Assembly (NCBI GenBank): GCA_028713995.1
Contig: JAQTNF010000003.1
Location: 2,020-66,019 of the forward strand
DNA from: Deltaproteobacteria bacterium
GTDB taxonomy: Bacteria > Myxococcota_A > Polyangia > JAAYKL01
Length of the DNA stretch: 64,000 nucleotides
Direction: 5' to 3'
Shown one piece after another: positions 1 through 30,651 of this stretch. Numbering within the stretch: the stretch's first letter is position 1; each line of letters begins with the position of its first letter. The notes under the pieces are model-generated. The model was not told the origin of the DNA. It did no database searches and saw only the letters and a program-made list of their open reading frames with translations. A program made the position numbers and the translations under genes.

Positions 1-1021
1 TCTGACGCCGAAGAAGTGCCCAGAAGCGGCGCGATGCATCTTCGTGTTTACCTTGTAGCCAGTAGCCGAACGCGGCTGATGCATCATGCGTAACGTGAAG
101 TAAAGGCGGAAACAAGACGGCTACGCGACTGTCTTTCGCTTTGTATCCTTCGGCTCGCGGATGCGCCGATGCGTTGAAAGCATCAAGCCCGGCGTTGGCC
201 GCAAGCAATGGGTTGGTATCAAACGTCTTATCACTAAGGAGGCCATTTATAGCTTTTGCTGCTGCGGTTGGTGTGTCGACGATATCGATCGCCGCCGCCT
301 TCGATTGCAGGGCAATATCTCTCCACGCATTCGCAGCGTCCCGCCATTCCTCGCCGCCGTCCCACGTAGAGAACTGGGCAACAGCCTTTTCATACCCGAT
401 AAGCGTTTTGTCCCATGCATCGGCATCCGCGCACAGGTCGGCGATGTGTTTGATGATCAAGGCGTAGAGCGGCATGCTGAACGAAGTAAGCAATGGAGTA
501 ATTGCCTCCCAGAAGAAAGCAGGTGCGGAACTACTGAGATTGCCCTGGGCAGTTCGAAAAATGTCGAGGTACTTTTTAAAACCATCTTGAAGCTTTTCAC
601 TCGCATGGGCCAACTCGTACGGCGCATCTGGAGGTAGCCCGAAATCCGCCGATCCTACACGTACAATTGCATCTACCACCTGAGGATCGATCCCAGACAG
701 GACATCTTGTTTCACGGGGGCAGCCCATCCGGTGTCATCATTCTGCCACACAAGGGATTGCACAAGTCGTTGCAGATAGCTTTCGAAACGTCCCTTCACA
801 CTCCGCGGGCGTAGCATCCAACACTCGTTCCAAGGCGAAGTTCCAGAATGCACTTCCTCAAAAAGATGCCCAAGGGTGATCGTCCCACCGCTCGTCTGCT
901 CCACGATGATGTGTATTAGCTCCCGCAGCCTTCGCGAGGGAAGGAAATGCCGAAGTACGAGCCACGTCATCCAGTGCATGGTGAAACTGTCGTGCGGTTT
1001 CTCAACAATGTCAGTGCTCAT
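1..1021 (-). CDS. Hypothetical protein; 3' end runs off the left edge. Start ATG at 1021-1019 overlaps the upstream gene's TGA stop (ATGA coupling).
   Basis: Manual translation of the minus strand from 1021 gives an uninterrupted frame of about 340 codons (MSTDIVEKPHDSFTMHWMTW...). The plus-strand ORFs here (141..467, 161..637, 667..879, 876..1064) are short and fragmentary. Confidence 0.6.
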   Translation of the reverse strand, partial: MSTDIVEKPHDSFTMHWMTWLVLRHFLPSRRLRELIHIIVEQTSGGTITLGHLFEEVHSGTSPWNECWMLRPRSVKGRFESYLQRLVQSLVWQNDDTGWAAPVKQDVLSGIDPQVVDAIVRVGSADFGLPPDAPYELAHASEKLQDGFKKYLDIFRTAQGNLSSSAPAFFWEAITPLLTSFSMPLYALIIKHIADLCADADAWDKTLIGYEKAVAQFSTWDGGEEWRDAANAWRDIALQSKAAAIDIVDTPTAAAKAINGLLSDKTFDTNPLLAANAGLDAFNASAHPRAEGYKAKDSRVAVLFPPLLHVTHDASAAFGYWLQGKHEDASRRFWALLRRQ

Positions 1022-2591
1022 GGCTTGCCTCTTGAATGACTCGGAAAGAAGGCCCTTCGAGTGAAGAATCGGGAATCACATGAAATAGCTTCAAATTAAC
1101 AATTACCTGATCGCGGTTGAAGTGACTGGCCCACTGAGGAAGCTTGTCAATGTCCCAACTAATAATAGTTGCACGTGCATGGGGCCACGTTTTATTACGA
1201 TCAAGAGAGACAAGACATCCCAGAACCTGATCGCATTTCCCGATAGTCAAATATTCTGTATAGTTCATCCAGCTCATCTCCTCGCGTGAATTGTCGTTGC
1301 TTCGCGCATACACATCTAAAGCAGCGAATTGTGGGAACTTGTCTTTTATAAAAGGAGGGAAAGGGACAAACACCCCAGATAGTCCGGCGGGCCTGCGATC
1401 TCGACATCCTTCCATGGGCGGGAACCATAAATAGTTTGACAAGATGAACACCGCATTCCGATGTCGAAACAGGCGACCGCCTTTCGCTGCGCTCACGAAG
1501 GACTCACGGAATGCTTGGCGCCACTCGAAGCAATCCTCTGTCATTCCGTCCGGTGATTCCCTTTTTCTCGTCGGTGTTAATGTACATAGCGATACCACGT
1601 CGATGTGTTCTGGTGGGATAGGGTGAAAGCAATGTGCGTATGAGGCCATGGCTTCGAGCCCATTGCCATCTGGACGATCTGTGTCCTTCAAAAACACATC
1701 CGAGCAAATAAGCGGTTGAATCGTTATAGACGGAAATCTGTGATCCTGCGGATGGAGGGTGACAAGCGAAAGGAGATTGGCCTCTGCCATGTGTATGTCG
1801 GAAACAAGGCTCTTCTCATATCTTGATCGGACAAGCTTGGGATGAAGGCATATTCGAACGCGTAGGTCTGGTTCGATCAAAAAAAGGCAACCGATATTGA
1901 AATTGTCGTCTTCGGGTTGTTCCTCGAGCCACTGTGAAAAGGTATCCAGATCTTCCGAGACAACGTTGTCAAGCGAACGAAGACGATTGAGGAACTCAAC
2001 AAGTTCTCTGGTTACGAATAGGATAGTATCCTCAGTGTCCTCAGTTGCCGGCGGGCGGATTCCGACATGAATACATCCTATCAGACTCACCGATGACGGC
2101 AGTTTGTTTATATCTTCGATGAATTTTAAGAAAACATCAGAAGGGAGGAACGCCTCCGGAAAAATCACCAGATCGAAACGTTCGGGCGGCTGAACGGGTA
2201 GCCTTGGGGTCGGTGTGATATCGTCAATGAAATCACATGATGGATTTAAACCCAATAGATAGTTGAACGTCGCATAAAAAAGTCCTTCGTGGATTCTCGG
2301 GCTGTATTCGTGCGGCTCCACTACGTAGACCCGGAAGGGATGTTTCTTCCGCATAGTAGGCCATTTGAGCCAGTTCGGCTTGAACGGCGATTCTTTCTCA
2401 ATTGTTTTATTACTAAAATCATTCAACGATTCTGTGCCGCCGCCGTGTTGAAGAATTCGACGTAGAAAACGATTGACGCAGTCAATAAAGGTCATTTGAA
2501 TTTCTGTTCTCCCAATATCGGACCCAAACCCTTTCGTAGTCCTGCCACAAACCGGCATCATTAAGATATCGCCGAGTAAGGAGACTCGCAA
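1011..2591 (-). CDS. Large protein with a putative carbon-nitrogen hydrolase (nitrilase-superfamily) Glu-Lys-Cys arrangement
   Basis: 526 aa. FPEAF (Glu), LHPKLV (Lys) and PLICSDVF (Cys) occur in the order and approximate spacing of the CN-hydrolase triad. About 42 % GC. Translationally coupled to the downstream gene. Confidence 0.35.
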   Translation of the reverse strand: MRVSLLGDILMMPVCGRTTKGFGSDIGRTEIQMTFIDCVNRFLRRILQHGGGTESLNDFSNKTIEKESPFKPNWLKWPTMRKKHPFRVYVVEPHEYSPRIHEGLFYATFNYLLGLNPSCDFIDDITPTPRLPVQPPERFDLVIFPEAFLPSDVFLKFIEDINKLPSSVSLIGCIHVGIRPPATEDTEDTILFVTRELVEFLNRLRSLDNVVSEDLDTFSQWLEEQPEDDNFNIGCLFLIEPDLRVRICLHPKLVRSRYEKSLVSDIHMAEANLLSLVTLHPQDHRFPSITIQPLICSDVFLKDTDRPDGNGLEAMASYAHCFHPIPPEHIDVVSLCTLTPTRKRESPDGMTEDCFEWRQAFRESFVSAAKGGRLFRHRNAVFILSNYLWFPPMEGCRDRRPAGLSGVFVPFPPFIKDKFPQFAALDVYARSNDNSREEMSWMNYTEYLTIGKCDQVLGCLVSLDRNKTWPHARATIISWDIDKLPQWASHFNRDQVIVNLKLFHVIPDSSLEGPSFRVIQEASHEH

Positions 2592-3351
2592 TGTTTGTAT
2601 TCTTTTCTGAGTTCACGAGGAAGCCAAATCATTTTAGAGGACGACCCGACCGCGATCTCGTTTCAGTCACCGCTGTCCACATCATTTACGGCTTTGGGCC
2701 GAGAAAACACTTCCCATCCTACCGCGCTCCGCGCCGGCAGATCGTTCAAGGATTTGCCCCTGCGGGTTCCTCCTTGACCTTGCCGTCAGGGCGCGGTGTG
2801 GGATGGGTGTTTTATTCTTAACCCCAAACACCATGAATAATATGACTGTCAGAAAAGCGACGGAGAGCTGGGTCGGCCAGTTCAACCACGTCCCCGGCTC
2901 GGTCATCGAGAAGCTCGGCGAGATCGACGATTCTGTCATCCTCTCCAACAGCGACCTGTTCCGGCTCATCGCCAGCCCGACAGTCGATTGTCTCGGCTGC
3001 GGCCTACGCTACGAAGGCGACTTGTCGCTGGAAGAACTTGAGCAGGCGCACGCTGACGGCAGAGGCGTTGCCTGTGGGCACTGCTCGGACAACGACGGCA
3101 GTTGCTGGACACTCGGTCTTCCGGACACCTTCCCCTGCGGCTGGAGCACGCTGTTCGCGCCTAAAGACAGCTCCGACATCGACTGGCTCCGCGATCACGC
3201 AGAGGAAGTCGCGAAGCTCGGCTTCTACGTCTTTGACAGCGAAGACTTCGGCGTCCTGCTCGGCATCGACGCAGGCGGCTTCGACTTCTACGACGCCTAC
3301 TGGATGCCGCTCTACCGACTGCGCGGCCTCCGTTGGCATAACACTGAATGA
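2591..3351 (+). pseudogene. Gene with the conserved N-terminal YFLTP(N)TM module (2591..2821 frame) joined to a GC-rich body (2803..3351) through a 1-nt frameshift
   Basis: DNA and protein homology to the N-terminus of 6505..7179 (FSEF/FSEV, VTAVHIIYG/VAVHVLYG, GFAP, SSLxL, LFLTPNTMN/YFLTPKTMN), but split across two frames. A single-base length difference relative to the 6640-6665 copy explains the shift. Confidence 0.4.
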
Positions 3352-3357
3352 TCTAGT

Positions 3358-3380
3358 GTCAGTTTTCCCGCGCTGGCAAA
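3358..3380. repeat. Palindromic motif GTCAGTTTTCCCGCGCTGGCAAA, copy 1, 7 nt after the stop of 2803..3351
   Basis: 23 of 24 nt identical to 6455..6478. Related to the perfect palindrome at 16466..16483. Confidence 0.7.
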
Positions 3381-3509
3381 GCCGCTGGCACGGTCTAGTA
3401 GCGGGGTTCTTGGGTCATAGTTGGTTTTGGGGGTTATTTGGGTCTAGTCTACAGAATCAACGAATTTCATCAGTTTAGGCTATTATGCCTCTAATAGAAA
3501 GGAGTTTTC

Positions 3510-5222
3510 ATGACTACTTCATACACGTTCGCGCGGTCTTCATCGATAGTTGCTATCGCAATCTGCGCCTGGCCACAGTTGGTTGCCGCACAAGCGTCTC
3601 CCCAAACAGAACAGCCCGTTGAAACTGATCCTGCCCCCTCTACTCCCCCTGCGCAGTCTCCCCCTCCAAGTAATTGTCAACCCCAAGGCCAACCTCTCGG
3701 TGAGTCTGACGAATACGAACTCAAACCTTACAGTTGCGAAGCAATACCTGAATACCAACCGGAGCCGAAGATGGCAATCGAAGCAGCGGTTGTTTCCGCG
3801 ATTGGCGGTTTGGTCGCGAGCCGTGCTGAAAAGGAGCTCATGCAGTGGTTTGTTGATGCAATGCTGAACGACCTATGTGGAGAAGTGAAGGTCAGAAATC
3901 TTCTCCCCAAAGTATGTGCCCTTCACGACGCCATCAACACCATTTCAATTCCGTCGAAAACCGCCCTCGTAGCTGCGTTTCGCGATGACATCGAGCAGTT
4001 GCCTGAACGACTCCTTTTGGATTCAACTTTCTCTGGCGAGGACGGGAAGGCATCAGTAAAAATTTATATACAGGTCTTTGAGGGTATCCGACGTGGTTAT
4101 CCCCCATTGGAGATCGTAGCTGGCTTGGGGAGCGTCGAGAAATTGAAAAAACAAAAATGCGACTCGGTAAACACTGAATGCGTATTACTTTTAGTTGGTC
4201 TCACAGCGCAGGCATATTTAGACGTTGGAGGTAACGAGAGCGGGTATAATAAGGATAACTTTAAAAGGGTCTTAGAGAATAAGCTCGATATCGTTAAAGA
4301 CAAAGATATCAGAAACAGATTGGATGAAACGAACTCCCCCAATAACAATCTATTCGATGAACTGTCGCACGCCTTAGAGAGTGCCAAGATCGCCACATCG
4401 GCTTCCCAGGAAACGATGACAGCCGAAAGGTTTTCTCATCGCGCGTTGATAGTTCTGACCTTGATGGAGGATATAACGGAGAGTTATCAAAAAAGTAATC
4501 TGGTGAACCCTAGGGCACGCAACTATCTAATATACTCGGCAACGGCATTGAGCGCCGCCAAGGCGAAGCATTACTCTGATGCACTCGTCCCCATGCTCCA
4601 GATTATTAGTGAGGCCGAGAAGGGGAAGCCCTCTCAAGGCGCTGTCGTCAAATTGCTTCAGCGGTATTTACCGCTTGCCGTTGATATAGCTGCCGCCGAG
4701 ACGAGTGCAGACATACAGACCGCTCTTGAAGATGCTGCACAACCCGTAGGAGGATGGCGCCTGAAAAAGACGCGTCCTATAATATCGATTGGTGCACTTG
4801 TTGGGGTGTCTCCTGAATGGGAGTTCGGATTCAAAGACGATAGCCTTCGACAGACCGGATTTGTCGTAAGTGTGTTCGCGCCTGTGGGTGTTGACCTTTC
4901 ATGGCCGCTGGAAAAGGGTACAGGTGGTTTCTTTATTTCACTCATCGATGTCGGTAGTCTTGTGGGCATTCGTGTTGTAGGTAAGGCTGATGAAGACGTA
5001 AAGAGTGTCGAACAACTCCCGGAACCAGGCTTCGCCCAAGTATTTTCTCCTGGGTTGTATGGGCGTTTTGGTCTTGGACATACTCCTCTGGTTTTCAGTT
5101 TTGGCGGCGCGTATTCACCTGAGCTTCGACGAATGACGTTGCAGACAGGCGCAACAGAGATCGCTAATGTAGTCCGTCTGCAACTGGCGCTTGCTGTAGA
5201 CGTAATGCTTATCCCTTTTTAA
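3510..5222 (+). CDS. Secreted, possibly outer-membrane, protein
   Basis: 570 aa. Shine-Dalgarno aaaggag. N-terminal signal peptide (AIAICAWPQLVAAQA). Pro-rich linker. C-terminus ends ...DVMLIPF, consistent with an OMP beta-signal. About 45 % GC. Confidence 0.55.
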   Translation: MTTSYTFARSSSIVAIAICAWPQLVAAQASPQTEQPVETDPAPSTPPAQSPPPSNCQPQGQPLGESDEYELKPYSCEAIPEYQPEPKMAIEAAVVSAIGGLVASRAEKELMQWFVDAMLNDLCGEVKVRNLLPKVCALHDAINTISIPSKTALVAAFRDDIEQLPERLLLDSTFSGEDGKASVKIYIQVFEGIRRGYPPLEIVAGLGSVEKLKKQKCDSVNTECVLLLVGLTAQAYLDVGGNESGYNKDNFKRVLENKLDIVKDKDIRNRLDETNSPNNNLFDELSHALESAKIATSASQETMTAERFSHRALIVLTLMEDITESYQKSNLVNPRARNYLIYSATALSAAKAKHYSDALVPMLQIISEAEKGKPSQGAVVKLLQRYLPLAVDIAAAETSADIQTALEDAAQPVGGWRLKKTRPIISIGALVGVSPEWEFGFKDDSLRQTGFVVSVFAPVGVDLSWPLEKGTGGFFISLIDVGSLVGIRVVGKADEDVKSVEQLPEPGFAQVFSPGLYGRFGLGHTPLVFSFGGAYSPELRRMTLQTGATEIANVVRLQLALAVDVMLIPF

Positions 5223-5237
5223 AAAGGAGAACATCAC

Positions 5238-6380
5238 ATGAGAATCATGAGCGCGGTGCTGGTTGGGTCAGCATGGCTGGCAACAATGTCGACGTGTTCC
5301 GAACTGTCATCCCAATCAGTTACGCCACCTCGCCCCAAGCTCTCGTCATTTTCAACAACCGAGCTTATTGCCTATCTCGGTGGCGACATGGAGAAGTCGC
5401 GTCCAAAGAAGCCCCAACCTGTTGCACTTGTGGACAATAAAAGTAATGCCGATGTGGTCGCGTTAAATAAGCTTCGACTGTTTCGCGATCAAGAAATTAT
5501 CGATGAACTCCAGTCTCGTACGAAATCTATTTTTGGCGATGACGATAGGAAGGAGGTTGGGAATTCTATAGAAACACTGAGGTCACTCGCGAATTCTGTC
5601 ACCGCATTCATCGAAGCCGACAAAATAGTTCCTCAGGACGACGGTTGGTCCACGATTGAAACCGAACCGCTTACTGATTGGGTTAAACGACAAAAGTCCT
5701 ACCCTCTGTGTATGGAGGAACGATTTCGAACCCAGCCCAGAGCGGCATTTTGCTCTGGTGTTCTTTTGGGTACAAAGCTAGTACTCACGGCCGCCCATTG
5801 TGTGCAGCCGGATAATGGTGGTGAGAATAACGCCATCCGAATCAGCGACGCGCGTATCGTCTTCAACTTCAAAGATTTCCAGAAACCTCCGGTCCGTGTC
5901 CCTTCTAGCGATGTATACCGTGGTGTAGGATTCATTGGTAGGCGACACGAAGGAATTTTCGACTGGGCGCTCATTTTACTTGATAGAGATGTCGTCGGCC
6001 ACAGCCCAGCGCCACTAGCACCTGTTACTGGACCCAAGGAAAGCGACCCTGTACTCGTCATTGGGCATCCTTTAGGCTTACCGGAAAAAGTTGCAGGTGG
6101 TGGACGTGTAGTGCGAGTCGGAGCTAACTCGTTCCTGGCAACCGTTGACACATTCATGGGAAACTCAGGTTCTCCAATATATTCTGACGAGGGGAAAGTC
6201 GTGGGCATGTTTATCAGTGGCGACCAAGATTTCGTTCAAGATCGTCAAAGAAACTGCATGCGTTCAAGAAGATGGAATGATGACGGCTTAAAAGGCGAGG
6301 TTTGCATGAGAACAACCCCTTTCTACGACGAATTAGTACCTTTGCCTCCGACACCAGCGATAGTGGGCGGTCAACCCTGA
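5238..6380 (+). CDS. Secreted trypsin-like (S1 family, V8/glutamyl-endopeptidase-like) serine protease
   Basis: 380 aa. Shine-Dalgarno aaaggag. Signal peptide. LTAAHCV His motif. GNSGSPIY Ser motif. Lies 15 nt after the preceding gene, so likely an operon. Confidence 0.7.
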   Translation: MRIMSAVLVGSAWLATMSTCSELSSQSVTPPRPKLSSFSTTELIAYLGGDMEKSRPKKPQPVALVDNKSNADVVALNKLRLFRDQEIIDELQSRTKSIFGDDDRKEVGNSIETLRSLANSVTAFIEADKIVPQDDGWSTIETEPLTDWVKRQKSYPLCMEERFRTQPRAAFCSGVLLGTKLVLTAAHCVQPDNGGENNAIRISDARIVFNFKDFQKPPVRVPSSDVYRGVGFIGRRHEGIFDWALILLDRDVVGHSPAPLAPVTGPKESDPVLVIGHPLGLPEKVAGGGRVVRVGANSFLATVDTFMGNSGSPIYSDEGKVVGMFISGDQDFVQDRQRNCMRSRRWNDDGLKGEVCMRTTPFYDELVPLPPTPAIVGGQP

Positions 6381-6454
6381 TAAAAAACCCTGATAACAAC
6401 AACACCTCACGATTTCAGACGGAAAGCACGCCTGGGTTTGACTTCTTAGAAGGG

Positions 6455-6478
6455 GTCAGTTTTCCCGCGCTGGAAAAC
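6455..6478. repeat. Palindromic motif GTCAGTTTTCCCGCGCTGGAAAAC, copy 2, 75 nt after the stop of 5238..6380
   Basis: Near-identical to 3358..3380. Confidence 0.7.
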
Positions 6479-6504
6479 TCGCGGCGGTCCTGTCTGCTGG
6501 GGGC

Positions 6505-7179
6505 TTGCTGCACTTCTCGGAAGTCGCTGTTCATGTGCTCTACGGGGCGGAAACACGGCCTCCACTCTGCCATCGGCCCGCTCCGGCAAAAGGATTTGCC
6601 CCCGACGTGCGTCGGAGTTCCTCCTTGCGCCTTCGCTCTCCGGCACGACGGCGATTCACGGCCGTATATTTCCTAACCCCGAAAACCATGAACCGCCCTG
6701 ATACAATACCAGCTCCACAGCCCATCGAGCAGCCAACCATACCCAAAGTGCTCAACGGCAGGATCAACGACTGCGGTGTCATTATCCCGCGCAACGACAC
6801 GATGGACATCATCTACAACGGTGCCGAAGACAGCCTGCTCTTCCGGCAGTTCAGAAGCGGTAACGTTACCGCGGAGATCGATCTGGCCGAGTTCGACGAC
6901 GGGTTGGTAGCCTGTTCTGCCTCTGTGAACACTCCGTACAGCGGATGCTCATCTCCAATGACGCCGGACGACCGGGCAGACCGAGAGACCGCGATAGCGG
7001 ATGTGACAAGCAGGATAATCCGCTCCCTCGAAAACACCATCGCCGACACCAGCTCCGGCAAGCCGAAAACGGTGAACGACAACTGCCGCGCGCTCATCGG
7101 ACAGCTTCGCGCCTGGAACTTCCGCTCCAGCGGCATGACCAGAGAAGAAGAACCACCTGCACTACCACTCGCCTTCTGA
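6505..7179 (+). CDS. Hypothetical protein carrying an intact conserved N-terminal module (...AVYFLTPKTMN) fused to a unique GC-rich body
   Basis: 224 aa in a single frame. The first roughly 62 aa are homologous, at DNA and protein level, to 2591..2835 and to the YFLTPKQM segment at 19660..19690. Confidence 0.5.
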   Translation: MLHFSEVAVHVLYGAETRPPLCHRPAPAKGFAPDVRRSSSLRLRSPARRRFTAVYFLTPKTMNRPDTIPAPQPIEQPTIPKVLNGRINDCGVIIPRNDTMDIIYNGAEDSLLFRQFRSGNVTAEIDLAEFDDGLVACSASVNTPYSGCSSPMTPDDRADRETAIADVTSRIIRSLENTIADTSSGKPKTVNDNCRALIGQLRAWNFRSSGMTREEEPPALPLAF

Positions 7180-7297
7180 GTCGGTCAGGAAACTGGCCCA
7201 GATCACGGAATTGAGGATCTGTTATTTTCACTTCACCTTCCCCCATCGCCTGGCGTTATGGTAATATACAAACGTTAATATCCTTACATCTCACCTT

Positions 7298-9463: not shown

Positions 9464-9556
9464 GCCCCCTTCATTCCTGGGTGTTACCGTAAAAGTGTGT
9501 ACCTCGGTGAACCGGCGTTTATTAATGATTTAAGATATGTAACTTCGCAGGTATTG

Positions 9557-10210: not shown

Positions 10211-10231
10211 AAATAAACATTAAAAATATAG

Positions 10232-12712: not shown

Positions 12713-12794
12713 GTGGAAGGTTGATTAACGGTAACATATAATAAATATTTCTATATAAAATGTCAAGCTTAATTAACTCATATTAAATCTCGTC

Positions 12795-12838
12795 ATGTTC
12801 AAGAACCCCGCTGTCCGTTTAAAGTGGACGCGGGGTTC
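12795..12838. terminator. Possible terminator hairpin between two minus-strand genes
   Basis: GAACCCCGCTGTCC-gtttaaagt-GGACGCGGGGTTC forms a roughly 12-bp stem just downstream (minus sense) of 12861..14852. T-rich flank is present on the plus side only. Confidence 0.3.
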
Positions 12839-12860
12839 TATGAGGCTTTTCTCCTTTCTT

Positions 12861-14852: not shown

Positions 14853-15709
14853 GGCGCAGCTCCTTTCTCCAGGTCCCGAGGGGACCGGTTTTTACGGGTT
14901 TGATTTCTGCCGGGCGGACCGGTGGCGATATGGCTCCGCTTCCATATTTCAGGAAAGGAGTCGCCCTCGATCTGCCCGTCAGGAATTGCCCGCCGGAGTC
15001 AGGGAGCTCGTTGCTTGTAGGACTGGTTCGGAGCGCTCATGGTTGCTGCCTTTCCACGCCCCTAAAAAAAAAGGGCGTGATGGACCCGCGCTCCGCGGAA
15101 GCCCATCCGCCCTCCCGAACGAACGGAGGTAGTCACTCCTCCGCCTTTCGGCAGCGGTGGTTGCGGAGCGCGTTTGTCCTGTGAAGCCGTCCCCGTCACG
15201 GGTGACAAATCCGTCAAGTCCGATGAACATCGGACAGGATCAGGCTTCACCATAAGGATGGTGTCGGTTAGGGCTTCGGGTCAAGAGAAACCAGAGCATA
15301 GAAACTGAAAGGATAATTAAAGCCTCATTGTTAAGGAGCAGCCGTTCCTCACTCCCATTGGGACGAGGACACGGCAAAGCGATGCCGGGCGTTTTTCACG
15401 CACGGTTCAACCGACTTGCTGTCGCAGGAACGGCCGATGGTGCAGTACCCGGCAGGAAACATAAAAACCGTTATTAAAGTGAAGTGTATTTATTTTATAC
15501 TATTTATTTGGATTTGTCAATTCAAGTGTATTTAATTATAGCATATTCTCACTACTTATTTAATCTGATTTTCCTGGGCGTGCCCCCCGAAGGACATCGG
15601 GGGTCGGGCTCTACGCTACTGCTTGCAACGCTGCGATCCCTCACGCGGAATACCTTGACATCTTCGTCCGCTCAGATAACCCTTCTAAAAACAAACAGGA
15701 GGTCCGATT

Positions 15710-16465
15710 ATGACGAAAGAAAAGAAGACGACTGCCCTGGCCAAGGTTGCTCCCGCCCGTGAATCGGCCGAGGAGGTCGCCCCGCCCGACCTCCCGGGCA
15801 TCGGGAACGTGGAGAAAAGCCTTCTCAACACGGCGGTAGGCGAGATCAACCGGCTGTATGCGGCCAAGAGCGTCGAGACGGCCTGCGCCGTGGGCGAGTA
15901 CATCCTCAAGACCTTCTTCAAGGGCGACATGGACAACTTCAACGAGTGGGGAAACAAACACGAGACCTTCGGAGAACTGCTCAGCATGGCGCAGGGGGAG
16001 GACAGCCCCCTGCACATCTCGTCCTCCGGGCTCTGGTACTCGGTGAGGATCCTCGAGCAGGTGAAAGCGCTACCCCAGGAAATCGCCATGGCCCTTCCCG
16101 GCACCCATCACAGGATGCTCGTGCCGGTGAAGGACGAGAAGAAAAAACTACAGCTCGCGAAGATGGCTGTGAGCAAGGGCTTGACCTCGCGAGCTTTCCA
16201 GGAGGAGGTCAGGGCAGTCCGTGAGGGAGAGATGCGGGAAGGGAACTCGCCCGGCCGCCCACCTCTCCCAGTCTGGGCGAAGGCCCTGAAGAAGTCGGTC
16301 AAGGCAATCAAGGACCTCACGGTGCAGGGCGTTACCAAGGACTCCTTCGGCAACTACAGCGCCGACGACGCCAATGAACTCCTCTCCGAGGTCAACGACG
16401 CCATTGACAAGATGAAGAAACTCCAGGAGAAAATCAGAACGCACGTCGAGAAGATGGCCGAGTAA
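15710..16465 (+). CDS. ParB/KorB-like DNA-binding protein (putative), orphan
   Basis: 251 aa. ALPGTHHRMLVPV ... GLTSRAFQEEV resembles the ParB LSxGHARALL...LSVRELE region. No parA partner nearby. Confidence 0.35.
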   Translation: MTKEKKTTALAKVAPARESAEEVAPPDLPGIGNVEKSLLNTAVGEINRLYAAKSVETACAVGEYILKTFFKGDMDNFNEWGNKHETFGELLSMAQGEDSPLHISSSGLWYSVRILEQVKALPQEIAMALPGTHHRMLVPVKDEKKKLQLAKMAVSKGLTSRAFQEEVRAVREGEMREGNSPGRPPLPVWAKALKKSVKAIKDLTVQGVTKDSFGNYSADDANELLSEVNDAIDKMKKLQEKIRTHVEKMAE

Positions 16466-16483
16466 TTTTCCAGCGCTGGAAAA
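16466..16483. repeat. Perfect 18-bp palindrome TTTTCCAGCGCTGGAAAA, immediately after the stop of 15710..16465
   Basis: Third member of the palindrome family (3358, 6455). Confidence 0.7.
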
Positions 16484-16605
16484 CTTCAACCTTTCTGTCC
16501 ACCAGCCGGAGCTCCACCATGGTCTGTGAGAGCTGATCTCCCAGCAGAACTCGTAGATGGACTTCGTCCCTGCCCGGCTCCCGTTTGTCCTGCCGATTTC
16601 GGATC

Positions 16606-18261
16606 TCACTCTGGCCGGTGGTCACACGATATTCCCGACTGATAATGCGCGTCTACGGTTATGTAGCCACTTTCCAATGGAATCAAACGCAGTGAGCGAA
16701 TCGTTTGTCCGTCTTTTAGTATTTCTTGAGACTCTTCGTTATTCACCGATATTCCCGGAGAACACCATCCCTCCTTGGGCTCGAATTCAATTTGATACTC
16801 ACCTCTTGGGACGAAAAGGGTTACTCCGCATTTGTTTTCGTGCTTTGAAAAAGTTCCTTCCCTGTGGTTATTACCGAAGACCTGTCGAAGCCGGTATTTG
16901 ATCCCCACGGGATTGGACCTTATGAATAGCTCAGCCACTTCGGGAGATGCGCCTATCGGAAGATACCGCCCTATGATGCTTTCCCCTTCTGACGGATCCA
17001 ACAGATCTTCCAGCCCTTCCGGCGGCGTTTCCAGGTTAAAATAGATGGGGGCTGGTGTGACAAAACCATCCACATCGTCGAATACGACCTTGTATCCGAT
17101 TCCAGGAAATGGTGCACTAGGAAGAACATGCTGAGATTCACATAACCCGTTCTTCACCTCTCTGCTCGGGCCGTCGCCCATTGGATTTCCATCAGCTGTA
17201 CGTCCAACAGTCCAACCCCCGTCTGGAATATTGGTTCTCACGACAACTGAATTCATAAGGGATTGGCCAACGCTCCTTTCAGAAACCTTTTCAGGAAGCT
17301 GCGCGTTAGGAGCGGGCGCTAGGCTCACGATATTATCTTCCTTTTGAAGACGCTCCTCACCATTTGCCACTGTTTGAGAAGGTAGGTTCGTACTACTTTT
17401 TAAGGCACTTTTAGAGTGGTCACTAAAATCAGGCGATTCGCTGTGTCTGTCTAATCGGACAGTAGCAGATTCTTTTCCCCGATCCCTTGGGGGGATGTAT
17501 CTATCTGATTGGATAGCAGCAGATTCTTCTCCCCGATCCCTTTGGGGGACTGGACTCTGCTCAGATACCAATGTCTTCACTCCTATAATAACGATGGCTA
17601 CAGTAACTGCAGTTACCCCCAGGGCAGCCACGTGTGAGAATTTTAAGGACAGCCATTTGTACGGGGGAAGAATAGCTCTAAACAGTTGTCTAAATTCAAT
17701 TCTTTTTTTACTATAAAATAGATTCAGAAGGGTTTCATCGTCCTCTTGAATCCCTTCTTCCTGTAGGGCCGCCTTGATTTTCGGAATTGCGTTTCTAATA
17801 CCTTGGGCGTAATTGGACTTACTCCACAGATGTTCCATTGCCTCCTGTGAGGCGTTGCTTTTTTTACCTGTTGGTTTTGCTAGTTCAAAAGGGCTACTGA
17901 TGGCTTCGCATGTCGAACTCAACTCGCTTGCTAGAATATAAATAGCCCAGCCATTTGTTTTCGTTTTCTTTTTCAGAACTCGTTCAAAATGTCTTAACGC
18001 GCTGTCTTCATTCCCCGTGGTATTACCCATTATTGGAATACGCTGAGGCTGTTTTAATGTTTTGTCTTGGCGCTTTCGGCCGTATCCCATTGCAAGAGCT
18101 AGTTTTTCTATTTTATTACTGGGTCTTATTGCTTTGTAGTTTGCAATGATTTCCCTGAATCTCTCCTCGGGCATACACCATTCCCAGGAATCGTCTTTTT
18201 TTAAACGACTAGCCGCCTCTTTCGCAAACTCATCATAATTCTTCTCGTCAATGGGTTTCAT
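16606..18261 (-). CDS. Single-pass membrane protein of unknown function, with a cytoplasmic N-terminal domain and an extracytoplasmic repeat and Cys domain
   Basis: 551 aa. TM segment VAALGVTAVTVAIVIIGV. RDRGEESA/RDRGKESA repeats. About 40 % GC. Confidence 0.5.
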   Translation of the reverse strand: MKPIDEKNYDEFAKEAASRLKKDDSWEWCMPEERFREIIANYKAIRPSNKIEKLALAMGYGRKRQDKTLKQPQRIPIMGNTTGNEDSALRHFERVLKKKTKTNGWAIYILASELSSTCEAISSPFELAKPTGKKSNASQEAMEHLWSKSNYAQGIRNAIPKIKAALQEEGIQEDDETLLNLFYSKKRIEFRQLFRAILPPYKWLSLKFSHVAALGVTAVTVAIVIIGVKTLVSEQSPVPQRDRGEESAAIQSDRYIPPRDRGKESATVRLDRHSESPDFSDHSKSALKSSTNLPSQTVANGEERLQKEDNIVSLAPAPNAQLPEKVSERSVGQSLMNSVVVRTNIPDGGWTVGRTADGNPMGDGPSREVKNGLCESQHVLPSAPFPGIGYKVVFDDVDGFVTPAPIYFNLETPPEGLEDLLDPSEGESIIGRYLPIGASPEVAELFIRSNPVGIKYRLRQVFGNNHREGTFSKHENKCGVTLFVPRGEYQIEFEPKEGWCSPGISVNNEESQEILKDGQTIRSLRLIPLESGYITVDAHYQSGISCDHRPE

Positions 18262-18490
18262 TTCCCCTCCGTAGTCTGATTTGCTCCTCGAATCTGGAAC
18301 CGTATCTTTCCGTAAAAACCTTTCGCATCAATTCACAGAAATCACTTCGAAAGGCTTCGGTCTCGCCCCGGTCTTCCCAGATAGACGCAAGGCTGGTTCT
18401 GCATTTGTTAACCAAGTTCTCGATGTGGCGTTCCACCTCCGCTTCGATAGGGAGGCCACTATCGGGTAATAGGTTAAATTTGTTCTCCAT
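18248..18490 (-). CDS. Small hypothetical protein translationally coupled to the downstream membrane protein
   Basis: 80 aa. 14-nt overlap with 16606..18261. Confidence 0.4.
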   Translation of the reverse strand: MENKFNLLPDSGLPIEAEVERHIENLVNKCRTSLASIWEDRGETEAFRSDFCELMRKVFTERYGSRFEEQIRLRRGNETH

Positions 18491-18676
18491 ACTATTATAT
18501 TGTTAGATGTGTATCTTAAACACTTAATATTATAGCATATAAAATAGCATTATACAATACATTAACGGGGAATTCATATTCAATTCGTGGGAAAATATGA
18601 GAAGAAAGAGCACCGTAAGGATTGTACAAGGGGAGAAGGTGCTCGTAGAGGAATACATGGCACACTGGCCGAGTAG

Positions 18677-19555
18677 TTGACAATCACCGCTCTCGATGGC
18701 CGCCACAAATTGCCTTTGTGGTGCTGTTTTCATCTATCTTATAATGTCATAGAAGTGTCCTCCTTACCCTCATGGGTTATCTTTAATAAAAAATACTTGG
18801 AGAATCGAGAAACCGAAAGACAGGATGATGCGCAGTACACGTTGAGGGTCTTCATCAGGTCCTCGGAAACAGGTGCGGAAGACAACCCGACAACGCTCAT
18901 CAAGGCAGTCAAACACCTCGGGACAAGGGACGTGGAACTTTTCCTGCCGGAGATAAGGGAGGTCGTGTCCCTAGGATGGGTGCCTGAGATAGTCTATAAG
19001 ATGGCCGAGGGCGGCGACCTCCTGGACATTATCATCAGACCAGATCCGAAAGCGCTCCTTGGTTGGCGAAAGGTGGACAAGGGCGACAGCCCCGACAGCC
19101 AACATGAAACGCCGGCAATGGCGTCGGAGACGGGCACGGTCGTCGACGAGAAACAGCACGAGCGAGAAGCCGGCGCGTCCTCGCCGGAAGCCCCGCGCCC
19201 GCACACACTGAACGATGAACTCTTGTACCGGGTAATCTATGAGAACCGCGAAATCCGTGTGAATGGGTTCGTCCTGTCCAAGCCCAACTACGATTCCGAG
19301 AATGACGTCGTGTTCGAACACGTGTTCCACAACGCCAACAGGAAAGTCGGCCTGGAAGAGATAGAGACGGCGATTCATAGGCCTCTCAAGAAGAGGCTCG
19401 GCGAAGTTGTCCGCGACCTCGGTTTCACGGGTGATCTCAAGGCCATCTTCTTCCCCGATGTCTCGAAGGCCGCCGTTCGCTTCGTGAACCCGGTGACGGC
19501 TGCCGACTTCGCGGCCCGTCGACTCAGGGCGCCTCGCCTCGGCACCGGCTTATAG
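18677..19555 (+). CDS. Hypothetical protein
   Basis: 292-aa ORF. Start uncertain. Confidence 0.4.
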   Translation: MTITALDGRHKLPLWCCFHLSYNVIEVSSLPSWVIFNKKYLENRETERQDDAQYTLRVFIRSSETGAEDNPTTLIKAVKHLGTRDVELFLPEIREVVSLGWVPEIVYKMAEGGDLLDIIIRPDPKALLGWRKVDKGDSPDSQHETPAMASETGTVVDEKQHEREAGASSPEAPRPHTLNDELLYRVIYENREIRVNGFVLSKPNYDSENDVVFEHVFHNANRKVGLEEIETAIHRPLKKRLGEVVRDLGFTGDLKAIFFPDVSKAAVRFVNPVTAADFAARRLRAPRLGTGL

Positions 19556-19581
19556 AGAACTGGTGTGGCCGAGGAGGATCG

Positions 19582-19929
19582 ATGTGGACAAGGGAGGGTC
19601 GAGCGGGTTCATTGGGCGCGGCCCGCTTTTTCGGTGCATCATGGGAAGCCCGTGCTTGCGGGGACTTGTATTTCCTAACACCCAAACAAATGGCCAACTA
19701 TTTCGTGACCGCGGATGTCGACCTCGCCGCGACGATCATTACTACCGCTGGTTCACCCATAGCCGACATCGACAGGTCCGACCCGTCTAGACCCAAGATT
19801 CGTTTCAACCGCGAAGACGTTATCGACGAGCTCGTGCAGGCGTACTACCGGGGCGACCTCCGTGTGGATCCGCTGGTGTTCGCGATGGTGCACCGGTTCC
19901 TCCGCTTTAAAATTAACCAGAAGAAGTAG
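19582..19929 (+). CDS. Small hypothetical protein with a degenerate copy of the YFLTPKQM module
   Basis: tatttcctaacacccaaacaaatg matches the module tail of 6665..6690. Confidence 0.4.
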   Translation: MWTREGRAGSLGAARFFGASWEARACGDLYFLTPKQMANYFVTADVDLAATIITTAGSPIADIDRSDPSRPKIRFNREDVIDELVQAYYRGDLRVDPLVFAMVHRFLRFKINQKK

Positions 19930-19931
19930 AC

Positions 19932-20300
19932 ATGAAGAATGGCGGATTCATTATGTTCAGGCGAACTCAGAACGCGCGGGAGATACTGAAGAAGCCCAAA
20001 GCGTTCACACTGCTCGCGCAGATCGCACAGCGCGCCCGGAGGAAGGGCGCGCTGACGCTGAACGGCCTTGGTGTGGGCGAGGCGCTCATCGGGGATCATG
20101 AGTCGATAGGTCTGTCAGAACAGAGCTACCGCTCGGCCAAGAAGCAACTCGCGGCCGCCGGATTGGCAACATTCCATCCAACGAGCCGAGGAACTGTCGC
20201 CCGCCTCGTCGATGACACGATATTCAACATCAACGGCGAAGACGTCAACGGGCGGAACAACAGACTGCTAACAGGCAGGCAACGGACAAACAACGACTAA
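19932..20300 (+). CDS. Putative winged-helix/HTH DNA-binding protein (replication or regulatory)
   Basis: 122 aa. ...SEQSYRSAKKQLAAAGLATF... Lies immediately upstream of the integrase. Confidence 0.35.
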   Translation: MKNGGFIMFRRTQNAREILKKPKAFTLLAQIAQRARRKGALTLNGLGVGEALIGDHESIGLSEQSYRSAKKQLAAAGLATFHPTSRGTVARLVDDTIFNINGEDVNGRNNRLLTGRQRTNND

Positions 20301-20448
20301 CAAGAATGGGAAAAAAGAGAAGAATGAGATATTAGTAGAACACAAATTGTTTGAAGATTATCCGTTAAAAAGTCGACACCGAAGCCTGCGCACGGGGAAC
20401 TGCCGCGCTTCCGGTCCCATTCCGACAAACAGTATTTATCAACAAATT

Positions 20449-21336
20449 ATGAACATCCTCGAGTTGCACCAACGGTTCCGGCGGTACTGCGCCATCGAAC
20501 AGGGGTTGTCCCCGCGCACGCTCCGCGCCATGGAATCCGCCGTGCGGACGTTCGTCCGTAGAACCGGCGCAATAGAGATGTCCGATGTCACCCTCGATCT
20601 CGTGCAGGGATTTTTTTACGAGGGGCGGGAAAAGCACCAGTGGGGGTTCTGGTGTTTTTCGAACTACCACAAGTACCTGAAAAAGTTCTTCGGGTGGTGC
20701 GTCTCGCAGGGGCACATGGCCGAAAACCCGCTCCTCGCCATCGGTCTTCCGGCCAGGCCACAGAAATTGCCGCGGCGCCTGTCGTTCGAGGAGGCGCAGC
20801 GCATCCTGTACTCGGCGTTCAACATCACCTGGCAGTACGAGTTCGAGCGGACGCGTAACCACGCCATCATCGCGATGCTTCTGTACACGGGACTGCGGGC
20901 ACAGGAACTCCTCAACCTCGAGGTCACTGACCTCGACCTTCGGTCCGGGTCTCTTCTGGTGCGCAGGGGCAAGGGAGCGAAGGACAGGTACGTGCCACTG
21001 CACTTCAAGCTCAGGTACGTCCTCAAACGCTACCTCGGCGACCGTCAGCGGCTCCGGAAGGAGAGCCCATTCCTGTTCACGGGCGTTAGGTCAGGGAAAC
21101 CGCTTGGGTACAAGGATCTGAGACGTGTGTGCCGCCGCGTCTCGAAAGAGACGCATGTCAGCTTCACGCCCCACCAACTCCGGCACACGTTCGCGAGCGT
21201 GTCGATCGATCAGGGCATGGGGCTCACGCAGGTGAAGGAGATCCTCGGGCACTCCAACATCGCTTCCACAATGATCTACGTGAGGCTGTCAACGCGAAGT
21301 CTGCGCGACGGATTAAATAAGATTGATTTATTTTAA
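20449..21336 (+). CDS. Tyrosine recombinase, XerC/XerD-like
   Basis: LSPRTLRAMESAVRTF N-terminal core-binding motif. RHTFAS...LGHSNIASTMIYVRL C-terminal catalytic motifs. ORF in the track starts at 20347; ATG at 20449 is preferred. Confidence 0.8.
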   Translation: MNILELHQRFRRYCAIEQGLSPRTLRAMESAVRTFVRRTGAIEMSDVTLDLVQGFFYEGREKHQWGFWCFSNYHKYLKKFFGWCVSQGHMAENPLLAIGLPARPQKLPRRLSFEEAQRILYSAFNITWQYEFERTRNHAIIAMLLYTGLRAQELLNLEVTDLDLRSGSLLVRRGKGAKDRYVPLHFKLRYVLKRYLGDRQRLRKESPFLFTGVRSGKPLGYKDLRRVCRRVSKETHVSFTPHQLRHTFASVSIDQGMGLTQVKEILGHSNIASTMIYVRLSTRSLRDGLNKIDLF

Positions 21337-21457
21337 ATCGGAGGTGTAGCCTGATATCAGGTTATAGGTCGTCGGAAAGAAGACCACTGACAGCAATCGA
21401 CTCTCGAAAAACGGCTTGAACAAGCCGTTAAGTCGAAATCGAAAAACGCGGTACCAC

Positions 21458-21502
21458 CTCTTAAGCTATTGGTCCTGGGTTCGAGTCCCAGAGCACCCAC
21501 CA
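21458..21502 (+). mobile_element. 3' fragment of a tRNA gene (T-arm, acceptor 3' strand and CCA only), a putative att site remnant
   Basis: cctgggttcgagtcccagagcacccacca. No complementary 5' acceptor strand (gggtgct) within 150 nt upstream. Confidence 0.55.
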
Positions 21503-21584
21503 AAATGGCTTACGGAAGCCGAAAAACGCGCGTCAGGGGTCGAGCCGAGGGTCTATAGCCGCAGGCTATTAACCCCCGGCACTT

Positions 21585-22484
21585 ATGTCTCAAGATATTT
21601 TACAGCTCCACGCGCTCTTCTGTCAGGAAGCGGTGCTCATCCGTAACTTTCGACCGGCCACCATCAAGTGGTACAGGACCGCGCTCAAGCAGTTCCTCAA
21701 GTTTTCGGGCGACAGGCTTTCGGGCATTCAGAGCATCACGACCGAGGTCTTGCGCACGTATCTCTACCACCACCGCCTCAACAATGGCTGGGCGTCGGAG
21801 ACATTTTTATCACATTACAAGGCGCTCAAATCGTTCCTGAAATGGTGTGTGAAGAACGACTACCTTTCATCGAACCCCATCGAGCCGATCGAGCGACCGA
21901 AGCTCGAGAAGAAGCTCCCCAAGCGCATCACCAAGCAGGACGCGCTCCGCGTCCTCGAGTACGCGTTCAACGCGCGGACGAGCTACAGGTTCGAACGGTA
22001 CAGGAACAGGGCCTTGCTCGCCGTGATGATCTTCGCCGGACTGCGCGCGAAGGAGACGCTCGACCTCCGGCTCGGCGACGTGGATCTGGCGAACAGCATC
22101 ATCCACGTGCAGCTCGGCAAGGGAGCTAAAGACCGCGTGGTCCCTATCTCCCCGCGGCTTCACCGCTATCTCGCGGAGTATCTCGATGACCGAAACCGCC
22201 TTCGGAAAGAGAGTGAGCTGTTCTTCGTCACGCTCCAGGGAAACGGGGCGTTCACGTACACCGGCCTGAAACGGGTCGTGGACAAGGCGCGAAAGGCGAC
22301 GGGGATAGCGTTCTCGCCGCACCGTCTTCGTCACACGTTCGCGACGCTCATGCTCGAAGGAGGGTGTGACTTGTTCAGCTTACAAAAAATGCTCGGGCAC
22401 TCGGACATCAAGACGACGACGATCTATCTGTCGGCCAGCGTGAGCATGTTGCAGGCGCAGATCGTGAAACACCCGTTGGGGTAA
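21585..22484 (+). CDS. Tyrosine recombinase, XerC/XerD-like; paralogue of 20449..21336
   Basis: 299 aa. RHTFATLMLEGG...LGHSDIKTTTIYL. Preceded by ttaacccccggcacttATG, which resembles the module tail. Confidence 0.8.
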   Translation: MSQDILQLHALFCQEAVLIRNFRPATIKWYRTALKQFLKFSGDRLSGIQSITTEVLRTYLYHHRLNNGWASETFLSHYKALKSFLKWCVKNDYLSSNPIEPIERPKLEKKLPKRITKQDALRVLEYAFNARTSYRFERYRNRALLAVMIFAGLRAKETLDLRLGDVDLANSIIHVQLGKGAKDRVVPISPRLHRYLAEYLDDRNRLRKESELFFVTLQGNGAFTYTGLKRVVDKARKATGIAFSPHRLRHTFATLMLEGGCDLFSLQKMLGHSDIKTTTIYLSASVSMLQAQIVKHPLG

Positions 22485-22616
22485 GAATTTATTCTGCGTC
22501 CCCGCCCTCCTGAATCATTAGTCAGTGGACCCCCCAAAGAGCCATGTCGGGTTTCGCCGTTTTCACGTCATTGCGGCAAAAAACTTAGTGTCCACAATAT
22601 ATTTAGAGGTGCAAAA

Positions 22617-24820: not shown

Positions 24821-24832
24821 GGAGGTACTTCG

Positions 24833-26077: not shown

Positions 26078-26116
26078 CGCCATGAGACGACGCCTGATGA
26101 CGCATGGAGGCATTAT

Positions 26117-28540: not shown

Positions 28541-28542
28541 CC

Positions 28543-29463: not shown

Positions 29464-29636
29464 AAGACGACGTTCGCAGCCGTCTATAGGAACCGGCCGA
29501 CGAAGCCGATTCCCCCGAACACCGGACCTGTGCCGACCGCGCGGACAACGCCCGCGGACGGATTCTTCTGAGTACCTGTCCTACGCGACGACCAAAGAAA
29601 GGAGACGACTGGAGTCATATTTTAACAATCGTCGCT

Positions 29637-30583: not shown

Positions 30584-30651
30584 AGTTCGATGTTCACGTC
30601 CTTGCCGAACGTGATATCTTGGCCTGGGGCGAGTCTCCGTCTCGCACGCGA

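Follow-up and report, generated by a model that had tools for sequence, protein, structure and literature searches.

We analysed a 64,000-nt stretch of DNA (the window) that forms part of an 86,137-bp GenBank contig of a metagenome-assembled genome (MAG) named 'Deltaproteobacteria bacterium' (locus tags PHU25_011xx); the host is a deltaproteobacterial/myxobacterial MAG of ~69% guanine plus cytosine (GC). Positions 1-31864 are probably the right part of a single mobile element that lies at the 3' end of a tRNA-Asp(GTC) gene, beside parAB, and spans at least 33.8 kb when 1.9 kb of sequence to the left of the window is counted. The genes nearest the tRNA encode an integrase and an HTH_17 protein, and those further in encode a Replic_Relax protein, a coupling ATPase and membrane proteins; judged from these sequences, the gene set is probably that of an integrative mobilizable element (IME). 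In its interior the element carries what appears to be an attP module, composed of two genes for Xer-like tyrosine recombinases (Xer1 and Xer2) with a fragment of tRNA-Lys(CTT) between them. A first-pass annotation of the window had described horizontally acquired, mosaic accessory DNA with tyrosine recombinases, which our analysis supports, and had ended this island at the Xer pair, at 22490; we move the boundary by 9.4 kb. The element belongs to a known kind of system, has an integration module that is moderately unusual and is in itself ordinary: tRNA-integrated, probably mobilizable and resident in an uncultivated deltaproteobacterium.

The tRNA-Asp junction

The right part of the element and the first genes beyond it are listed here (strand in brackets; aa, amino acids; ORF, open reading frame; GC3, GC at third codon positions; L numbers are our handles for loci and contigs).

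22617..26077 (+): ORFs of 233, 501 and 414 aa, two of membrane type; no family matches; the 501-aa and 414-aa ORFs are syntenic in L024, a locus from another Deltaproteobacteria MAG
26117..28540 (+): coupling ATPase, VirD4/TrwB/TraD-like, 807 aa, with a Ser-rich C-terminal region
28543..29463 (+): Replic_Relax protein (replication-relaxation family, PF13814; 68.5 bits), a putative DNA-processing protein
30275..30583 (+): HTH_17 protein (excisionase/AlpA type), 102 aa
30664..31779 (+): third tyrosine integrase, 371 aa; Phage_integrase 121 bits; 26% identical to Xer2
31865..31941 (-): tRNA-Asp(GTC), intact, 73 bits (ARAGORN and Rfam)
31975..32047 (-): tRNA-Val(TAC), intact (ARAGORN and Rfam)
32541..34177 (+): chromosomal parA-parB, GC3 0.93; the first host genes past the island

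Between the stop codon of the third integrase gene and the 3' end of tRNA-Asp there are 85 nt, which include the terminator hairpin of the tRNA. At the gathering threshold, Rfam reports only tRNA-Asp and tRNA-Val in the window. The coupling ATPase matches TrwB_AAD_bind at 21.2 bits against a cut-off of 20.5 bits and has partial NCBIfam TraD/VirD4 matches in its P-loop region, and its homologues at 43-44% identity bear PF02534 or PF10412. Within it, at 27400-28200, a Ser/Gly-rich low-complexity insert of ~280 aa matches 'serine-rich protein' and ClfA-type models. The Replic_Relax assignment comes without NCBIfam or PDB support. To the right of the tRNAs stand genes for ParA, ParB, a sulfatase, pyruvate phosphate dikinase, SMC, a PilT-like ATPase, a YkuD protein and a methyl-accepting chemotaxis protein, all at GC3 of ~0.93; parAB genes are usually origin-proximal. 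A prophage was considered and rejected, as there are no phage structural or PHROG matches and identity of the integrase to those of phages does not exceed ~31%.

Mean GC is 0.535 over positions 1-22490, 0.606 over 22491-31864 and 0.686 over 32048-64000. The first-pass annotation had reported a step to ~68% GC immediately after 22484 and proposed sliding-window GC and codon-usage plots as a check. That check, when run, placed the step elsewhere: the 300-nt windows read 0.52 (22400-22699), 0.55 and 0.59, then 0.57-0.65 to ~30 kb, so that those at the supposed step fall within 0.52-0.60, and host-level composition (~69% GC, GC3 0.93) is first reached at 31.9-32.0 kb, at tRNA-Asp and tRNA-Val. GC3 behaves likewise, at 0.42-0.88 within the island against 0.91-0.93 for the core genes that flank it, with its step again at 31.9-32.0 kb. 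Composition read by eye had misplaced the junction, for which the signature of a tRNA with an integrase is the reliable marker.

The same check bore out the gene-by-gene mosaic. A low class is made up of the 516-aa, 570-aa, S1 protease, 217-aa, 551-aa and 80-aa genes (GC 44.5-50%, GC3 0.42-0.55), so the 38-45% given earlier for it was ~5-7 points too low. The 826-aa gene is intermediate (GC 51.8%, GC3 0.63), and a high class (GC 57-62%, GC3 0.71-0.83) takes in two small 'module' ORFs of the cargo region, a pilin-FecR fusion, a Cys-repeat protein, a ParB-like gene, the 266-aa and 122-aa genes, Xer1 and Xer2. For genes of 650-2500 nt, sampling error is many times smaller than the difference between the classes. 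Overall, a backbone of 58-62% GC and GC3 0.7-0.85 runs from 2.8 kb to 31.8 kb, and scattered within it are low-GC genes (44-52%) whose products are secreted or membrane proteins, and the repeated switches of gene orientation noted previously are evident in the ORF layout. The mosaic likely arose by module exchange between relatives whose hosts span 38-62% GC, because relatives of the integration module occur in elements of 38-62% GC. Beyond the junction, a 417-aa ORF at 36723-37976 has a GC3 of 0.60 amid chromosome at 0.93, and GC dips again at 45.5-46.5 and 54-55.5 kb; these may be further small acquired segments.

The Xer1-tRNA fragment-Xer2 module

The module has the following parts.

20449..21336 (+): Xer1 tyrosine recombinase (Phage_integrase); the distal-end partner in integrated relatives
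21457..21502 (+): 46-nt 3' fragment of tRNA-Lys(CTT), anticodon loop through CCA; putative attP core
21503..21584 (+): 82-nt leader that contains two conserved hairpins and connects the tRNA fragment to the start of Xer2
21585..22484 (+): Xer2 tyrosine recombinase; belongs to a widespread integrase clade located beside tRNA genes

The two recombinases are tandem paralogues on the same strand, as had been annotated, with 36% identity (E=1e-69) and matches of both to Pfam Phage_integrase; the catalytic R-K-H-R-H-Y residues are intact in both and in the third integrase. Neither protein reaches the cut-offs of the NCBIfam XerC and XerD equivalog models (335 and 330 bits), the scores being 167 and 148 bits for Xer1 and 194 and 185 bits for Xer2; the closest solved relatives in the PDB are archaeal XerA and E. 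coli XerD. From the stop codon of Xer1, 120 nt lead to the tRNA-Lys fragment and a further 82 nt to the ATG of Xer2. Rfam recognises only the T-arm of the fragment. A search for repeats of the fragment towards the left, suggested with the first-pass annotation, found neither a second copy nor an intact tRNA-Lys in the window or the 1.9-kb extension.

The hairpins of the leader contain 7 pairs with compensatory changes among five sequences (window 21503-21584 and L013, L019, L023 and L025), and the 82-nt gap between a tRNA or tRNA fragment and an Xer2-like gene is also present in L019, L023 and L025. The leader may insulate Xer2 from tRNA read-through or control its translation.

Relatives of the two recombinases

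Xer2 has 2303 relatives at E≤1e-20, in the candidate phyla radiation (CPR/Patescibacteria), Myxococcales, Nitrospirota and other groups; in viral contigs we found only integrases of ~30% identity. Among 80 Xer2 loci drawn from GTDB species representatives, an intact tRNA on the same strand lies 24-206 nt upstream of the Xer2-like gene in 35, and a T-arm-bearing tRNA fragment precedes the gene in 23 more (~0.03 per locus expected by chance). The commonest of these upstream tRNAs is tRNA-Thr(GGT), followed by Lys, Met, Arg, Ala, Val and Pro. Four loci contain complete small islands, of 1.7 kb (L025), 1.9 kb (L034), 3.4 kb (L031) and 6.4 kb (L082), the edges of which are 38-47-nt direct repeats of the 3' part of the tRNA, starting around the anticodon arm. 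Judged by these contexts, Xer2 belongs to a family of predicted integrases tied to tRNA genes.

Two of the islands are mini-islands in Patescibacteria-type genomes (L025 1892-3653, L034 5808-7760) that consist of one Xer2-like integrase gene and ~0.7 kb, between tRNA-Lys repeats of 38-43 nt. To our knowledge, islands of 1.7-1.9 kb are among the smallest integrative elements.

The Xer1 clade comprises ~60 proteins of 45-83% identity, and at least 20 contigs appear to hold both an Xer1-like and an Xer2-like protein (the contigs were paired by size match across two hit lists). A search of metagenome contigs for Xer1-like proteins with a generic peptide pattern gave, among the matches listed, only relatives of 27-35% identity.

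One integrated relative suggests how the two genes are placed after recombination. On JGI contig Ga0377233_001499 (L019/L183), an intact tRNA-Arg(TCT) is followed after 82 nt by an Xer2-like gene (65% identical); ~17 kb of cargo follows, including a type I restriction-modification system; and then an Xer1-like gene (61%) on the same strand is followed after 154 nt by a perfect 47-nt repeat of the 3' part of tRNA-Arg. Two 47-nt tRNA repeats in direct orientation thus delimit this 18-kb element, which has its Xer2-like gene on the side of the intact tRNA and its Xer1-like gene on the opposite side. Because the element, once excised and circularized, would join Xer1, tRNA fragment and Xer2 at the spacing seen in the window, the Xer pair of the window appears to be an attP module that has not recombined. 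The tandem form is also found at four further loci.

L024: 45% GC; a different tRNA fragment between the recombinases
L190: 62% GC; a tRNA-Arg fragment between the recombinases
L189: a tRNA 5' half between the recombinases
L191: 38% GC, 22-kb contig; an intact tRNA-Met, and a RepB_primase gene beside the Xer1-like gene

The module thus recurs with its anatomy in separate genomes, and comparison of these sequences suggests that both proteins act at it. It would be the attP form of a two-recombinase system directed at the segment of tRNA genes from the anticodon loop to the 3' end. Integration through the module site would put Xer2 just downstream of the regenerated tRNA and Xer1 at the opposite end, immediately interior to the displaced tRNA fragment. 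In the present element the module would stay unrecombined, the hold on the chromosome being provided by the other integrase at tRNA-Asp.

Some tandem pairs have other tRNA parts between them. In L189 (10922-11220) and L067 (5643-6000), it is the 5' part of a tRNA (Arg and Ile, respectively), cut near the anticodon arm, which the simple attP model does not explain. In L058, L073, L086, L090 and L191 an intact tRNA (Thr or Met) stands between the upstream recombinase and the Xer2-like gene, which suggests that some elements hold a whole tRNA gene in their attP.

The conserved surroundings of the module in L024 bear directly on where the island ends. To the left of its tRNA fragment this locus has homologues of the 266-aa and 79-aa genes and Xer1 (56% identical); to the right, on the same contig, it has Xer2 (54%) and homologues of the 80-aa, 501-aa, 414-aa and coupling-ATPase genes. 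Because genes from both sides of the pair occur together in L024 at 35-55% divergence, the pair is internal to a conserved backbone and not an island end. The first-pass annotation had called for such a comparison, and the result goes against its view that the island stops at 22490 in an XerC/D-like hotspot that accretes cassettes, with host DNA beyond. We consider that view very improbable. It drew on real features (GC that varies from gene to gene, switches of orientation and recombinases in tandem), and accretion has limited support from low-GC genes in the 58-62% backbone, from one low-GC cassette of 3.1 kb between 28-bp repeats and from three palindromes at borders of the GC classes. However, nothing ties the Xer-like proteins to those sites: the Xer2 family goes with tRNA genes rather than palindromes, and the palindrome was not found in the 97 fetched loci of other genomes. 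Composition provides no boundary at 22490, and the 9.3 kb to the right encode the coupling ATPase, Replic_Relax protein, excisionase-like protein and integrase at non-host GC, up to a junction at the third integrase and tRNA-Asp.

Assembly of the window

Independent Logan contigs from two sequencing runs (SRR22315509 and SRR22315506) agree with the window at 0 mismatches. In window coordinates they lie as follows.

L001 (SRR22315509): -1921..13974
L003 (SRR22315509): 14097..21284
L002 (SRR22315509): 21282..22588
L005 (SRR22315509): 22577..31914
L004 (SRR22315506): 14591..19578

L001 carries the 1.9 kb to the left of the window, at a GC of 0.48-0.60; the island therefore reaches at least 1.9 kb beyond the left window edge at island-like GC. 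The contigs break inside the Cys-repeat gene, where internal repeats of 78-81 nt interrupt the assembly, near the 3' end of Xer1, 96 nt past Xer2 and 50 nt inside tRNA-Asp. Xer2 is thereby isolated on L002, a contig of 1307 bp, and L005 ends 50 nt into tRNA-Asp. Many Xer2 homologues are likewise found on contigs of 1.0-1.6 kb. The short contigs and the Logan ends are consistent with att repeats, or coexisting forms of the element, interrupting assemblies.

These breaks raise the question of an assembly artefact, in which an episome with an intact attP was misjoined to the chromosome through the tRNA-Asp sequence, or unrelated pieces were joined at ~22.58 kb. Contig ends at 22577-22588 and 31914, the latter leaving 50 nt of tRNA-Asp (about the size of an att identity block), would fit such a misjoin, as would the attP form of the Xer module, the plasmid-like functions (ParB-like protein, Replic_Relax protein and coupling ATPase) and the RepB_primase gene on the 22-kb contig of the relative L191. 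However, a chimera at 22.58 kb is disfavoured because L024, from an independent MAG, reproduces the synteny across the pair, with Xer2 beside the 501-aa, 414-aa and coupling-ATPase genes. GC is also continuous across 22.5 kb, the arrangement at tRNA-Asp, where 85 nt with the terminator hairpin separate an integrase gene from an intact tRNA, is the standard one for an integrated junction, and a repeat of 50-77 nt is normally resolved by paired reads. An artefact is, in our estimation, improbable.

Comparison with tRNA-targeting elements

Islander-type islands have a tyrosine integrase by the regenerated tRNA and a displaced tRNA 3' fragment at the other end (PMC4383910). The element likewise has a tyrosine integrase beside an intact tRNA and atypical composition up to that tRNA, and relatives of Xer2 show the regenerated tRNA and a displaced 3' fragment of 38-47 nt at the ends of their islands. 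It differs in that its tyrosine recombinases number three and in that its interior contains a second att site, derived from a tRNA and apparently unrecombined. With IMEs and integrative and conjugative elements it shares the integrase, an excisionase-type helix-turn-helix protein, the putative DNA-processing Replic_Relax protein and the VirD4/TrwB-like coupling protein, without an evident complete mating-pore set.

Several observations weigh against integration of a single mobilizable unit at tRNA-Asp. In a further difference from Islander-type islands, no repeat of the tRNA-Asp 3' end was found in 1-31700 or the 1.9-kb extension (23-mer with ≤3 mismatches; blastn-short); the left end lies beyond the accessible sequence. 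The Logan breaks at 21282-21284, 22577-22588 and 31914 leave the joins at 22.58 kb and at the tRNA without independent confirmation in the sample. The genes for the third integrase and the HTH_17 protein are nearer to the host in GC3 (0.81-0.88) than the other backbone genes and could belong to a separate, older element. Among the island ORFs of the window, which covers part of the element only, there is no VirB4, no other type IV secretion gene and no canonical MOB relaxase family, so that mobilization is inferred from two proteins. As for Xer1, the mini-islands of more distant relatives have only an Xer2-like gene, which weighs against a need for it in recombination.

Part of this evidence would also suit a composite, formed by tandem accretion of at least two adjacent integrative elements. 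Xer1 would then end the left element, the tRNA-Lys fragment and Xer2 would start the right one, and the third integrase and HTH_17 protein would belong to the right one or to a third, older remnant. A junction of tandem copies would look the same as an attP, and pipolins are known to occur in tandem at a single tRNA (PMC11551731). Low-GC cargo is richer on the left, the GC3 of the integrase and HTH_17 genes is above that of the other backbone genes, and pairs in the attP form also occur inside very large chromosomal contigs (L055, 1.04 Mb; L063, 817 kb). Against a composite, however, the window and its 1.9-kb extension contain neither an intact tRNA-Lys nor a second copy of its fragment, the right-hand part lacks an Xer1 at its distal end, no tRNA-Asp fragment separates the integrase and HTH_17 genes from other element DNA, and genes of both sides have stayed together in L024 despite protein divergence of 35-55%. 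We regard a composite as unlikely and favour a single element at tRNA-Asp that carries the Xer module within it.

Pipolins are tRNA-targeting integrative elements, some with two integrases and some in tandem at one tRNA, in which exchange of the integrase shifts the target (PMC11551731). The element resembles them in targeting a tRNA and in having more than one integrase. It differs in lacking piPolB, and in that its Xer-like genes flank an attP and would come to lie at opposite ends after integration. We found no description of this opposite-ends arrangement of two recombinases in the literature, in a search that was not exhaustive.

We therefore raise, as a tentative possibility, that the Xer1-like and Xer2-like proteins form a previously undescribed two-integrase system, whose genes flank a tRNA-mimicking attP and lie at opposite ends once integrated, which is portable across hosts and which in the present element adds a second target (tRNA-Lys) to tRNA-Asp. 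The hosts of the module include CPR/Patescibacteria, Myxococcota, Nitrospirota and Bacteroidota, with elements of 38-62% GC, so that the module recurs in elements of candidate-phyla bacteria and of high-GC myxobacteria alike. If both proteins are needed, or if they steer directionality, the system would be a distinct design among tRNA-targeting integrases. With mini-islands only 1.7-1.9 kb long, the module could also be a source of compact tools for tRNA-specific integration in uncultivated lineages.

Palindromic repeats in the island

Three sites in the left part of the island share an 18-bp palindrome.

3358..3385: 28-bp repeat, copy 1; contains the 18-bp palindrome TTTTCCCGCGCTGGCAAA
6455..6482: 28-bp repeat, copy 2; 25/28 identical to copy 1; contains the palindrome TTTTCCCGCGCTGGAAAA
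16466-16483: 18-bp perfect palindrome TTTTCCAGCGCTGGAAAA, directly after the stop of the ParB-HTH-like gene

The 28-bp direct repeats enclose an insert of 3.1 kb (3386-6454) that encodes a 570-aa protein and a serine protease and looks like a discrete insertion; by our estimate, ~7e-4 such pairs would be expected by chance in 33 kb. The three copies of the palindrome (3363-3380, 6460-6477 and 16466-16483; TTTTCCAGCGCTGGAAAA and variants) compare with 0.06 expected, and each sits at the border of a high-GC and a low-GC gene. Among 97 fetched loci of other genomes there was no copy, and the only matches were in Logan contigs of the same element. The palindromes were rejected as intrinsic terminators, having weak stems, no U-tract after them and fold z-scores of -2.0 to +0.7.

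The ParB-HTH-like protein could use the palindromes as operator or parS-like sites, or they could be insertion targets, and the two readings are equally good. KorB (RK2) and ParB proteins act with palindromic operators or parS sites, and the small ParB-HTH-like gene of the island directly precedes one perfect palindrome, with two more copies in the element. It differs from them in three respects: its HTH_ParB match is below the cut-off, a ParB N-terminal domain is absent, and the window contains no ParA partner for it. More speculatively, the 28-bp palindromic repeats would be secondary sites that capture low-GC cassettes.

The repeats could also suggest that the Xer pair serves XerC/XerD-type multimer resolution of a plasmid stage, at a dif/cer-like site such as the 28-bp repeats. 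The top NCBIfam and PDB matches are XerC, XerD and XerA, the two genes are paralogous as XerC and XerD are, and palindromic 28-bp sites are present in the island. However, the equivalog scores of 148-194 bits are far below the cut-offs of 330-335, the signature of the family is a tRNA or tRNA fragment directly upstream with tRNA-derived repeats at island edges, and the palindromes lie 4-18 kb from the pair and are absent from relatives. We consider multimer resolution exceedingly improbable. The comparison with XerC/XerD-dif systems, integrative mobile elements exploiting Xer (IMEX) and Acinetobacter pdif modules has the same outcome: a paralogous Xer-like pair and palindromic repeats that bracket a gene module are held in common, but Xer1 and Xer2 fall below the XerC/XerD cut-offs, belong to a tRNA-associated family and showed no link to the palindromes. 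We found no tie between the repeats or palindromes and any recombinase.

The island shares with integrons a tyrosine recombinase near unrelated genes. An integron was rejected here as it had been in the first-pass annotation: the integron-integrase model TIGR02249 gives scores of 81, 106 and 61 against a cut-off of 265 bits, gene orientations are mixed rather than common, and attC-like pairs (RYYYAAC(N40-130)GTTRRRY) numbered 0 in 1-32000 versus 4.5 in shuffled sequences, by a crude regular expression and not HattCI.

The cargo region

The genes between the left window edge and Xer1 are as follows.

2..2561 (-): low/intermediate-GC two-gene operon; 340-aa N-terminal part of a 915-aa ORF (2-1021, exits the window) and a 516-aa ORF (1011-2561); neither has family matches
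2640..3351 (+): 'module' 1; conserved leader of ~190 nt with a long hairpin, and a 172-aa acidic ORF (2833-3351; GC3 0.79)
3510..6380 (+): two-gene low-GC cassette between the 28-bp direct repeats; 570-aa protein and 380-aa trypsin-like serine protease; GC3 0.47-0.48
6495..7179 (+): 'module' 2; leader homologous to that of 'module' 1, and a 163-aa ORF (6688-7179)
7298..9463 (+): protein of 721 aa with a prepilin-type N-terminus and a FecR domain; backbone GC class
9557..12712 (-): ORFs of 217 and 826 aa; GC 44.5% and 51.8%; no family matches
12861..14852 (-): Cys-rich repeat (EGF-like) secreted protein, 663 aa
15710..16483 (+): ParB-HTH-like protein, 251 aa; HTH_ParB 17.8 bits against a Pfam cut-off of 22.6 bits
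16606..18490 (-): low-GC pair, ORFs of 551 and 80 aa; GC3 0.42-0.54; the 80-aa homologue is elsewhere in L024
18755..20300 (+): three backbone genes near Xer1 (266 aa; 79 aa, 19690-19929; 122 aa), of which the first two are kept beside the Xer1 homologue of L024

Searches of Pfam, PHROGs, PADLOC, NCBIfam and PDB sequences with the unknown ORFs of the island gave essentially nothing; PADLOC returned only weak protease-domain matches, for the S1 protease. The ORF of 'module' 1 has no match in Pfam, PHROGs or the PDB, and the ParB-like protein has no relatives in the GTDB genome scan and none in the PDB. The 80-aa gene forms a two-gene unit with an overlapping large gene both in the window (16606-18490) and in L024 (3657-5169), where the unit is on the opposite side of the Xer pair, in reversed orientation, with a large gene unrelated to that of the window.

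The leaders of the small acidic 'module' ORFs, ~190 nt long, lie at 2640-2832 and 6495-6687, with a weaker one at 19560-19689. The first two have a central AAGGAUUUGCCCC...GUUCCUCCUU hairpin in common, and that of 'module' 1 folds with z = -5.2 (0/200 shuffles as good). They recall the single-strand promoter or leading-region elements of conjugative plasmids.

Two AT-rich intergenic spacers, previously given as ~850 and ~190 bp, do exist, as an 857-bp (14853-15709) and a 264-bp (18491-18754, GC 37.5%) spacer; the longer has 53% GC overall and an AT-rich core of only ~120 bp. The sequence ATTATAGCATAT occurs just twice in the 64 kb, once in each spacer: the copy at 15537-15548 precedes the ParB-like gene, and that at 18531-18542 lies where the 80-aa and 266-aa genes diverge. 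It may be a shared promoter or operator. A motif containing TAACCC(C) takes the place of a Shine-Dalgarno sequence ~10-15 nt before the ATG of four backbone genes, including Xer2 (2820-2832, 6672-6687, 19672-19689 and 21566-21584), and the same motif precedes the Xer2-like genes of L013, L019 and L190.

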